A DNA stretch of 64,000 nucleotides from Dictyostelium discoideum (lineage: Eukaryota). Each line of letters starts with the position of its first letter. Within the stretch, counting starts at the first letter, position 1. Shown here piece by piece: positions 21,508 to 22,302 of this stretch. The notes below the pieces were generated by a model. The model saw only the letters and a list, made by a program, of their open reading frames with translations. It ran no database searches and was not told the DNA's origin. The stretch spans positions 4,864,001 through 4,928,000 of the forward strand of contig CM000152.2 of assembly GCA_000004695.1 (NCBI GenBank). Direction: 5' to 3'. A program made the translations under genes and the position numbers.

Positions 21508-22302
21508 TTAAACACTTTGACTTGCACTTTGACTAGCGCTTTGACTTGCGCTTTGACTGGCACTTTGGCTTGAAACACTTTGACTTGCACTTTGATTTGC
21601 AGAACCTTGACTTGCAACACTTTGGTTTGCACTTTGACTAGCGCTATGATTAGCACTTTGACTAGCGCTTTGATTAACACTTTGACTGGATCCTTGGCTT
21701 GAACTTTGACTGGCACTTTGAGTGGCACTTTGACTGACTACACCTTGGCTTGAAATTTGACTGTCACTTTGACTTGCACTTTGACTTGGACTGTGACTAA
21801 CAGAATTTTGACACGAGACACTTTGGCTTCCACTAGCAACACTTTGGCTTCCACTTGCAACACTTTGGCTTCCACTTGCAACACTTTGGCTTCCACTTGC
21901 AACACTTTGACTTGCAGCATTTTGACTTGAGGCACTTTGGCTTCCACTTTGGCTTCCACTTTGACTTCCACTTTGACTTGCACTTTGACTTGCACTTTGA
22001 CTTGCAGCATTTCCACTTGAGGCACTTTGACTTGCACTTTGACTTGCACTTTGACTTGCACTTTGACTTGAACTTTGGCTGGCAGTGTTTTGACCTGAGG
22101 CACTTTGACTTTCACTTGATATGCTTCTACTATCAGTTTGGCTTCCAACGTTGTTACTACCGCCATTGCTTGAAGCACTTTCAGATTGCAATGAATGGCA
22201 TGGTGTAAATGAAGGAGTTTGAGCGCTGAGAGGTGACTCTGTGATAGCATTAATACAAAATACTGCAAACATTAAAACAAATAAATAAATAATAATTTTC
22301 AT
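21508..22302 (-). CDS. Secreted low-complexity protein with a signal peptide and (S-Q-S-A)n / 'SQSVASG' repeats (264 aa).
   Basis: 'MKIIIYLFVLMFAVFCINAITES' is a signal peptide. The ~200 following residues are almost only S, Q, A, G, V and N in 4- and 7-residue repeats. The DNA is locally GC-enriched, with 12-nt periodicity 'agtcaaagtgca'. Confidence 0.6.
   Translation of the reverse strand: MKIIIYLFVLMFAVFCINAITESPLSAQTPSFTPCHSLQSESASSNGGSNNVGSQTDSRSISSESQSASGQNTASQSSSQSASQSASQSASQSASSGNAASQSASQSASQSGSQSGSQSGSQSASSQNAASQSVASGSQSVASGSQSVASGSQSVASGSQSVSCQNSVSHSPSQSASQSDSQISSQGVVSQSATQSASQSSSQGSSQSVNQSASQSANHSASQSANQSVASQGSANQSASQSVSSQSASQSASQSASQSASQSV

Follow-up and report, generated by a model that had tools for sequence, protein, structure and literature searches.

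The subject of this work is a serine- and glutamine-rich repeat gene on chromosome 3 of Dictyostelium discoideum AX4, lying on the minus strand at 21508..22302 of the window, a stretch of 64,000 nucleotides (nt) that covers positions 4,864,001 to 4,928,000 of contig CM000152.2 (assembly GCA_000004695.1). It is very probable that the locus encodes a genuine repeat protein of the secreted type, that this protein is polymorphic in length and that its reference allele is truncated. Relative to alleles outside the AX4/AX2 lineage, the reference allele is cut short by a nonsense codon, which was overlooked in a preliminary description of this DNA. This is a real D. discoideum gene, and the kind of protein it encodes is ordinary for a repeat-rich genome. 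It is an uncharacterised member of a familiar protein kind, restricted to the group-4 dictyostelids and presumably already numbered as a gene.

The gene and its truncated reference allele

The complete coding sequence (CDS) of the AX4 allele occupies a single exon of 264 codons plus a TAA, running on the minus strand from an ATG at 22302 to the stop at 21508-21510, exactly as the preliminary description had delimited it. That description also held that all three frames on both strands give long open reading frames (ORFs) here; the other five frames are indeed partly open (177, 123, 92, 58 and 37 codons), but only the frame that begins with the signal peptide is open from end to end (280 codons). 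The identical CDS is called as a gene in the independent assembly GCA_054883475.1 (L001/L005, 264 aa), which reproduces the signal-peptide-linked frame exactly and without a frameshift.

The partial openness of the other frames, together with the absence of the exact protein sequence from a collection of 15 billion proteins, would suit a non-coding minisatellite with chance ORFs, or a gene in another frame or on the other strand. Such a reading is scarcely credible, as only the signal-peptide frame links a conserved ATG and signal peptide to a conserved tail and stop across alleles, its glutamines are encoded solely by CAA, the codon favoured in this organism, and the alternative products (VKVQ..., HFDL...) use disfavoured codons and are without conserved ends. 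A search of Rfam gives no match.

The ORF is almost certainly DDB_G0281727, since it is the sole ORF between ube2m (DDB_G0281725) and DDB_G0281729. Window positions and published AX4 chromosome 3 coordinates differ by a constant offset of 4,864,000 at DDB_G0281723, ube2m, DDB_G0281729, gacY and cct3 (those of DDB_G0281723, ube2m and DDB_G0281729 being given in the synteny table of the Sucgang et al. 2011 supplement), which places the putative DDB_G0281727 at 4,885,508-4,886,302 of the chromosome. The WH2 motif on record for DDB_G0281723 is present in the 459-aa neighbour, and the product of 39527-40990, a T-complex gamma subunit, falls into one cluster with EAL66632 of D. discoideum AX4.

Comparison of the 3' ends at the DNA level shows that the premature TAA (21508..21510, minus strand) stands where wild alleles have TCA (Ser): AX4 reads GTT TAA AGT CAA AGT vs GTT TCA AGT CAA AGT in the long alleles, a single C>A nonsense change. 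In frame past the stop lies a relic of the ancestral C-terminus, SQSEIPSPCEKK, which ends in the ancestral TAA at 21469-21471 (relic and stop together 21469..21507, minus strand), and the truncation costs the last 13 residues, the C-terminal Cys among them. About 25 nt past the ancestral stop is an AATAAA hexamer of the polyadenylation type (21442..21447, minus strand), a candidate signal as judged from the sequence, and the string around it, CCAAATTTAATAAAAAAA, is kept in two discoideum-clade isolates (L007 and L008).

The same nonsense base is found in GCA_054883475.1, a long-read assembly that is 99.5% identical to the window, differs from it mainly in simple repeats, and is probably AX2-214. 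The stop is therefore real and older than the AX2/AX4 split. Read-through of this codon was considered and dropped, with nothing in its support, as was an intron extending the ORF, for which the 3' end offers no GT-AG candidate. Work on AX2 or AX4 is thus the study of a variant without the conserved Cys tail, the full form existing only in wild isolates.

Protein architecture, repeat and conservation at syntenic loci

The product begins with the clear signal peptide that had been proposed earlier (residues 1-19, MKIIIYLFVLMFAVFCINA; 22246..22302, minus strand), made up of M-K, a 15-residue hydrophobic core (IIIYLFVLMFAVFCI) and then N-A|I-T, with the cut predicted before ITESP by the -3/-1 rule. 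Hydropathy is 2-3.2 across residues 1-17 and then drops, the remainder of the protein being hydrophilic. In the AlphaFold 2 (AF2) model, the helix at residues 2-21 is the only confident element (predicted local distance difference test score, pLDDT, 85-89); the mean pLDDT is 42.8, and 226 of the 264 residues fall below 50. The signal peptide is conserved among seven alleles/species. Its charged N-terminus, hydrophobic core and small residues at -1 and -3, with no second membrane segment in the protein, are the marks of a secretory protein, and the earlier call of a genuine secreted-type repeat protein in the signal-peptide-linked frame stands.

The mature protein (∼245 residues) is nearly uncharged and disordered, with Ser at every second position; the AX4 protein as a whole contains three Cys, one of them inside the signal peptide, and seven charged residues. 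Alignment defines a conserved mature N-terminal (head) module of 25 residues, ITESPLSAQTPSFTPCHSLQSESAS (22171..22245, minus strand), with one invariant Cys (C35). Two repeat blocks follow, separated by a non-repeat hinge, SQSVSCQNSVSHSPS (21784..21828, minus strand), with an internal Cys (C164); the hinge is kept as SQSASC(Q/E)NAASHS(P/Q)SQS in three other discoideum-clade alleles and is absent from L009. There is no glycosylphosphatidylinositol (GPI) signal or transmembrane segment, the truncated (…SQSV) and ancestral (…SPCEKK) C-termini both being hydrophilic. A GPI anchor was dropped as a candidate for want of a hydrophobic C-terminus, and CaaX prenylation of CEKK because this is a secretory protein and neither middle residue is aliphatic.

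Residues 65-264 consist almost entirely of five amino acids (S 88, Q 41, A 31, G 12 and V 12, or 184/200, 92%), in agreement with the preliminary description of some 200 S/Q/A/G/V residues in 4- and 7-residue repeats. Ser makes up 44% of the repeat (88/200), Thr 2/200 and Pro 1/200, a composition rich in serine but not that of a Pro/Thr/Ser (PTS) domain. The unit table for AX4 gives SQSA ten times, SQSVASG four times and SQSG three times, plus variants. At the DNA level, the 12-nt and 21-nt periodicities noticed earlier are recovered by Tandem Repeats Finder as a main 12-nt array of 45.6 copies (SQSA/SQSG/SQSV; 21513..22077, minus strand) and a 21-nt array of 4.6 copies with 97% match (SQSVASG; 21818..21913, minus strand), to which it adds a 78-nt higher-order unit present 2.2 times. 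A 24-nt two-unit pattern, with up to 3 mismatches allowed, has 17 matches, all within the ORF, and none in 100 shuffles; the repeat is far beyond chance. The G+C (GC) content of the ORF (42-45%) is likewise above that of its surroundings (8-20% in the flanks, 22% in the whole window). The high GC content is shared by the proline-rich neighbour DDB_G0281723 (45%).

Syntenic loci were obtained from the long-read assemblies of Holland et al. 2025 (PMC12745789), with ube2m homologues as anchors, and in each syntenic assembly the ORF lies tail-to-tail with ube2m. Besides the 264-aa allele of GCA_054883475.1, they comprise discoideum-clade isolates with alleles of 285 aa (L004, GCA_054859205.1), 436 aa (L007) and 446 aa (L008), D. 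cf. discoideum (L009, 302 aa), D. dimigraforme (L002, 166 aa) and D. firmibasis (L006, GCA_036169595.1, 178 aa). All the loci aligned share the signal peptide and a head of the form ...AI(T/A/N)ESPLSAQ(T/S)PS(F/L)xPCHS..., and every discoideum-clade allele outside the AX4/AX2 lineage, as well as that of D. dimigraforme, ends in ...(E/D)(I/V)(P/S)S(V)SPCEKK*. D. firmibasis, whose divergence from D. discoideum is roughly human-mouse-like (PMC12745789), keeps the signal peptide and head and has a related, Cys-free tail (...NEIPTNSH*); BLASTP of the AX4 protein against it gives E=8e-22, driven by the head segment. The same signal peptide, head and tail at the syntenic copies of four diverged discoideum-clade isolates and D. 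dimigraforme, with the same head in D. firmibasis, show that the gene is real. Codons 1-43 of the discoideum-clade alleles differ mainly by synonymous changes (3:0, 5:2 and 2:2); comparison of flank with coding identity between species does not discriminate, because AT-rich intergenic DNA aligns spuriously. Two of these loci carry annotation slips: in GCA_054859205.1 the gene is called from a second ATG (275 aa), and MKIIIYFFVL, 30 nt upstream (L004 7621-7650, minus strand), gives 285 aa; in D. firmibasis GCA_036169595.1 the 178-aa orthologue (L006 6169-6705, minus strand) is uncalled.

In D. purpureum, gene order around ube2m is rearranged, but the DDB_G0281729 orthologue is followed immediately downstream by an ORF of 123 aa, an arrangement also seen in D. 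discoideum. In this ORF a signal peptide and a CxxC head precede SGSQS-type repeats, and the tail contains two Cys. Its BLASTP similarity is not significant (E=2), and orthology there therefore rests on position and architecture, whereas in D. cf. discoideum, D. dimigraforme and D. firmibasis it is indicated by similarity and gene order.

The preliminary description expected repeat number to differ among strains, and the syntenic alleles bear this out, the D. discoideum clade having lengths of 264, 285, 302, 436 and 446 aa and the three other species lengths of 166, 178 and 123 aa. The diverged alleles compared are those of tropical isolates, some possibly cryptic species (PMC12745789). Per allele there are 1 to 10 copies of SQSVASG and 16 to 32 of SQSA; the 21-nt array has 10 exact copies in two wild alleles and fewer in the others, and a block of SQGA/SQSA 8-mers together with an SGQNTA-containing unit is expanded only in the two long alleles. 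The repeat sequence itself differs by species, being SHSGSQSVS in D. dimigraforme and an irregular SGSQS/HQSS in D. firmibasis. Alleles of 264-446 aa nevertheless use the same ATG and the same tail frame despite length changes of up to 546 nt. With head-to-tail units, differing copy number and a frame that is kept, the repeat is a coding minisatellite, or variable number tandem repeat (VNTR), and in-frame gain and loss of units accounts for a 1.7-fold variation in protein length within the D. discoideum clade. Slippage or unequal exchange would add and remove 12- and 21-nt units without loss of the frame.

Neighbouring genes in the same assemblies served as a control: ube2m encodes 227-230 aa, DDB_G0281729 366-410 aa and DDB_G0281723 429-502 aa, a spread of at most 17% vs 1.7-fold. 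DDB_G0281723 (16176-17555, minus strand), which encodes a WH2/proline-rich protein, has lengths of 429, 450, 459, 462, 468 and 502 aa between assemblies (L002, L004-L009). Since this gene also varies, length polymorphism is common in the genome, though far smaller there than in the SQ-repeat gene.

A variable repeat between conserved ends can be read in other ways. The gene may be dispensable and drifting, a young orphan of weak expression whose coding minisatellite is neutral, with the AX4/AX2 nonsense codon as a first step of pseudogenisation. The nonsense allele is carried by healthy laboratory strains, the repeat sequence changes from one species to another, similarity to the D. purpureum counterpart is insignificant, no homologue is found outside group 4, and expression is possibly low; moreover, repeat-unit indels are in frame by construction, which makes the open frame weak evidence of selection. 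Drift is nonetheless unlikely, if still to be reckoned with, as head, signal peptide and tail have persisted across a divergence like that of human and mouse, the same architecture occupies the same position in D. purpureum, head substitutions within the clade are mostly synonymous, the ORF is intact in eight sequences, and only 13 residues are lost by the truncation.

It is very unlikely that the protein is a precursor in which an N-terminal peptide of ∼20 residues (ITESPLSAQTPSFTPCHSLQSE) or the tail acts as a secreted signal and the repeat serves as a spacer or pro-region. Conservation of head and tail only, with a spacer free to vary in length and sequence, would fit such an arrangement, but no dibasic or other recognisable processing site separates the head from the repeat, the head of the D. 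purpureum counterpart is a different one, and the tail has been lost in laboratory strains without known consequence.

Sequence searches are uninformative here because the protein is of low complexity. Pfam returns no family even at E<=10; a word-indexed homology search with the full protein yields 8000 candidates, none significant, and with the non-repeat N-terminal 64 aa no candidate. A HMMER scan of 1.84 billion representatives gives 10 matches (E 3e-6 to 7e-4), all rejected as homologues, being spurious translations of simple repeats (SQSVNQSI..., SESASPSV...). No homologue outside the group-4 dictyostelids was found in these searches, and neither the window nor the syntenic loci obtained hold a paralogue of either conserved module, head or tail. 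In the literature searched, the main texts contain no mention of DDB_G0281727, and the peptide strings SQSASQSA, SGSQSGSQ and SQSVASG do not occur; nor was the identifier found in the supplement of the O-fucose proteomics paper, as searched.

Expression and possible nature of the protein

On balance, we favour the view that the SQ-repeat protein is made in the growth phase, is secreted or luminal, and forms a mucin-like polymer with a cysteine at each end, its serines probably carrying O-linked (phospho)glycans, and that its gene is lineage-restricted. Additional file 7 of Rosengarten et al. 2015 (PMC4403905) contains DDB_G0281727 three times, always in the suspension_DOWN sheet, which holds the genes that fall in starved, cyclic AMP (cAMP)-pulsed suspension cells. 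The entries are in column 13 (DOWN_Hr06_gradual), in a list stacked under column 2 and, by elimination, in column 1 (DOWN_Hr00_gradual). The identifier is absent from the suspension_UP and filter-development lists of the same file, filter_UP included. The gene is therefore transcribed in AX4 and its mRNA falls after starvation, as far as can be told from lists that give neither expression level nor strand and an identifier assigned by position. In the same sheet, column 2 (DOWN_Hr00_rapid) ends at DDB_G0267416, with a second descending list beneath it that starts from DDB_G0304475, and the header has 17 names vs 16 first-row entries; a list (perhaps DOWN_Hr10) is seemingly misplaced.

Listing as falling after starvation, and not in filter_UP, is the opposite of what is expected for a spore-coat or sheath protein. 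The assignment to the spore-coat/slime-sheath type in the preliminary description is accordingly not sustained, the protein also having no Pfam hit, none of the Cys-rich folded domains of coat proteins, and almost no Thr or Pro. Its signal peptide, serine-rich tract and cysteines near the ends would all suit an extracellular-matrix protein of development, one that prespore or prestalk cells make for the spore coat, slime sheath or stalk tube. Such a role is improbable given the absence of a filter_UP listing in the 24-h developmental RNA sequencing (RNA-seq). Nor was the identifier found in the searched parts of the Kin 2018 spore/stalk/cup cell-type RNA-seq supplements or of the Gloeckner 2016 multicellularity-gene supplements, and the protein has no Cys-rich (EGF-like, follistatin-like) or cellulose-binding module in Pfam and no confident fold.

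For the favoured growth-phase polymer, a mechanism based on glycosylation and cross-linking is conceivable, if somewhat doubtful. The protein would enter the secretory pathway, where its serines would receive Ser-linked sugars or sugar-phosphates, as Dictyostelium adds to serine-rich tracts, and the decorated repeat would form an extended, hydrated, mucin-like polymer. In the ancestral form, the head Cys and the tail SEIPSPCEKK with its second Cys would provide ends that permit disulfide links, either head-to-tail with itself or with partners. Production would occur mainly in growing or early-starving cells and not in late development. Disulfide linkage is suggested by the Cys near each end (Cys35 and the tail Cys; two and two in D. 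purpureum). A Ser-O-(phospho)glycosylated polymer is suggested by the documented glycosylation of Ser tracts in Dictyostelium, in whose secretory pathway serine-rich or mucin-like tracts acquire N-acetylglucosamine-1-phosphate (GlcNAc-1-P), fucosyl-GlcNAc-1-P (Fuc-GlcNAc-1-P), Fuc-1-P and O-Fuc on their serines (PMC8724618; PMC11507795). Growth-phase cysteine proteinases are among the proteins with glycosylated Ser tracts (Ord et al. 1997, cited in PMC4920372).

The closest likenesses come from the same organism. The spore-coat proteins SP96, SP70 and SP85 are also secretory proteins with long serine-rich low-complexity tracts, which are documented acceptors of O-Fuc and Fuc(a1-3)GlcNAc-a-1-P-Ser, and coat-protein cysteines cross-link. 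These coat proteins are large and prespore-induced and have Cys-rich folded domains, whereas the SQ-repeat protein has no folded domain, 2-4 Cys and virtually no Thr or Pro, and is listed only as falling after starvation. The lysosomal cysteine proteinases cprD, cprE and cprG are growth-phase proteins of the secretory pathway with a phosphoglycosylated serine-rich insert, which bears GlcNAc-1-P (Ord et al. 1997, cited in PMC4920372). In these enzymes the Ser-rich insert is short and lies within a papain fold, whereas the SQ-repeat protein is nearly all repeat and has no Peptidase_C1 or other catalytic domain in Pfam. The inserts of cprD, cprE and cprG hold SGSQ/SGSG-type motifs similar to the SQSG and SGSQS units of the SQ-repeat protein and its orthologues.

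More distant systems offer analogies. Bacterial serine-rich repeat glycoproteins of the Fap1/GspB class combine alternating Ser in short tandem units, heavy O-glycosylation, a fibril-like shape and a variable repeat number (PMC5063993). Unlike the SQ-repeat protein, they are exported by accessory Sec, wall-anchored and equipped with folded binding regions, and no sequence relationship exists. VNTR mucins and yeast flocculins share in-frame tandem units, length polymorphism among strains, rapid repeat turnover and conserved flanks; the units of the SQ-repeat protein are much smaller than those of animal mucins and flocculins, the protein is much shorter, and it has no adhesion or von Willebrand-type terminal domain.

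Several points weigh against the picture of a growth-phase glycosylated polymer. Secretion, glycosylation, disulfide bonding and any physiological role are all putative, and Thr and Pro, abundant in classical mucin domains, are almost absent. The number and position of Cys are not strictly conserved, with 2-4 in the mature protein and no tail Cys in D. firmibasis. Growth and development are normal in the laboratory strains, which carry the truncated allele, and the tail is therefore dispensable under laboratory conditions. The identifier DDB_G0281727 is assigned by position only, and the RNA-seq lists do not give the strand. The identifier was not found in the searched parts of the other Rosengarten supplements, among them a list of the 8,040 genes with expression in the two experiments alike, and expression may therefore be low. 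As for the absence of the protein from the large collection, the AX4 model there may differ, or low-complexity proteins may be filtered.

A more specific proposal is a two-ended, Cys-capped Ser/Gln polymer whose strain-specific length and glycan load tune an extracellular property in the wild, which is speculative and has little probability at present. If true, that property might be one of a surface coat by which strains are told apart, or of a glycocalyx or lysosomal/secreted matrix in contact with bacteria as the cells feed, and the NC4-derived laboratory lineage would have lost one Cys cap. Another possibility is that the alternating-serine, Q-rich repeats assemble into extracellular silk- or amyloid-like cross-beta fibres. 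Dictyostelium has low-complexity repeat proteins in abundance, and the gene in itself matters little; its protein is a domain-free candidate substrate for the poorly understood machinery of Ser-linked phosphoglycosylation and O-fucosylation, and its highly variable locus a convenient strain-typing marker, as well as a test case for whether coding minisatellites in secreted social-amoeba proteins are neutral or selected.

Neighbouring features of the window

The anchor gene ube2m has four exons on the plus strand (19727-19979, 20101-20196, 20292-20528 and 20713-20819; span 19727-20819). Its intron 1 contains a run of ∼60 A, and its intron 3 a (TAT) tract of ∼40 copies, for which the mechanical ORF list gives a 160-aa poly-Tyr ORF (20255-20737). 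No exact-protein record was found for two neighbouring products, that of DDB_G0281723 and that of a FAM32A-like ORF.

At 27314-28412, four overlapping ORFs of 177-348 aa on both strands lie inside a large gene that, by position, is probably DDB_G0281731. The real frame there encodes an Arg/Asp/Ser/His repeat (SRDHRDSRDYRD...), likewise a stop-poor, periodic coding repeat. Long trinucleotide coding repeats at 11520-11775, 51750-52030 and 62184-62311 match one another and a repeat in L001 at 85-100% identity, and presumably encode poly-Asn/Gln tracts.

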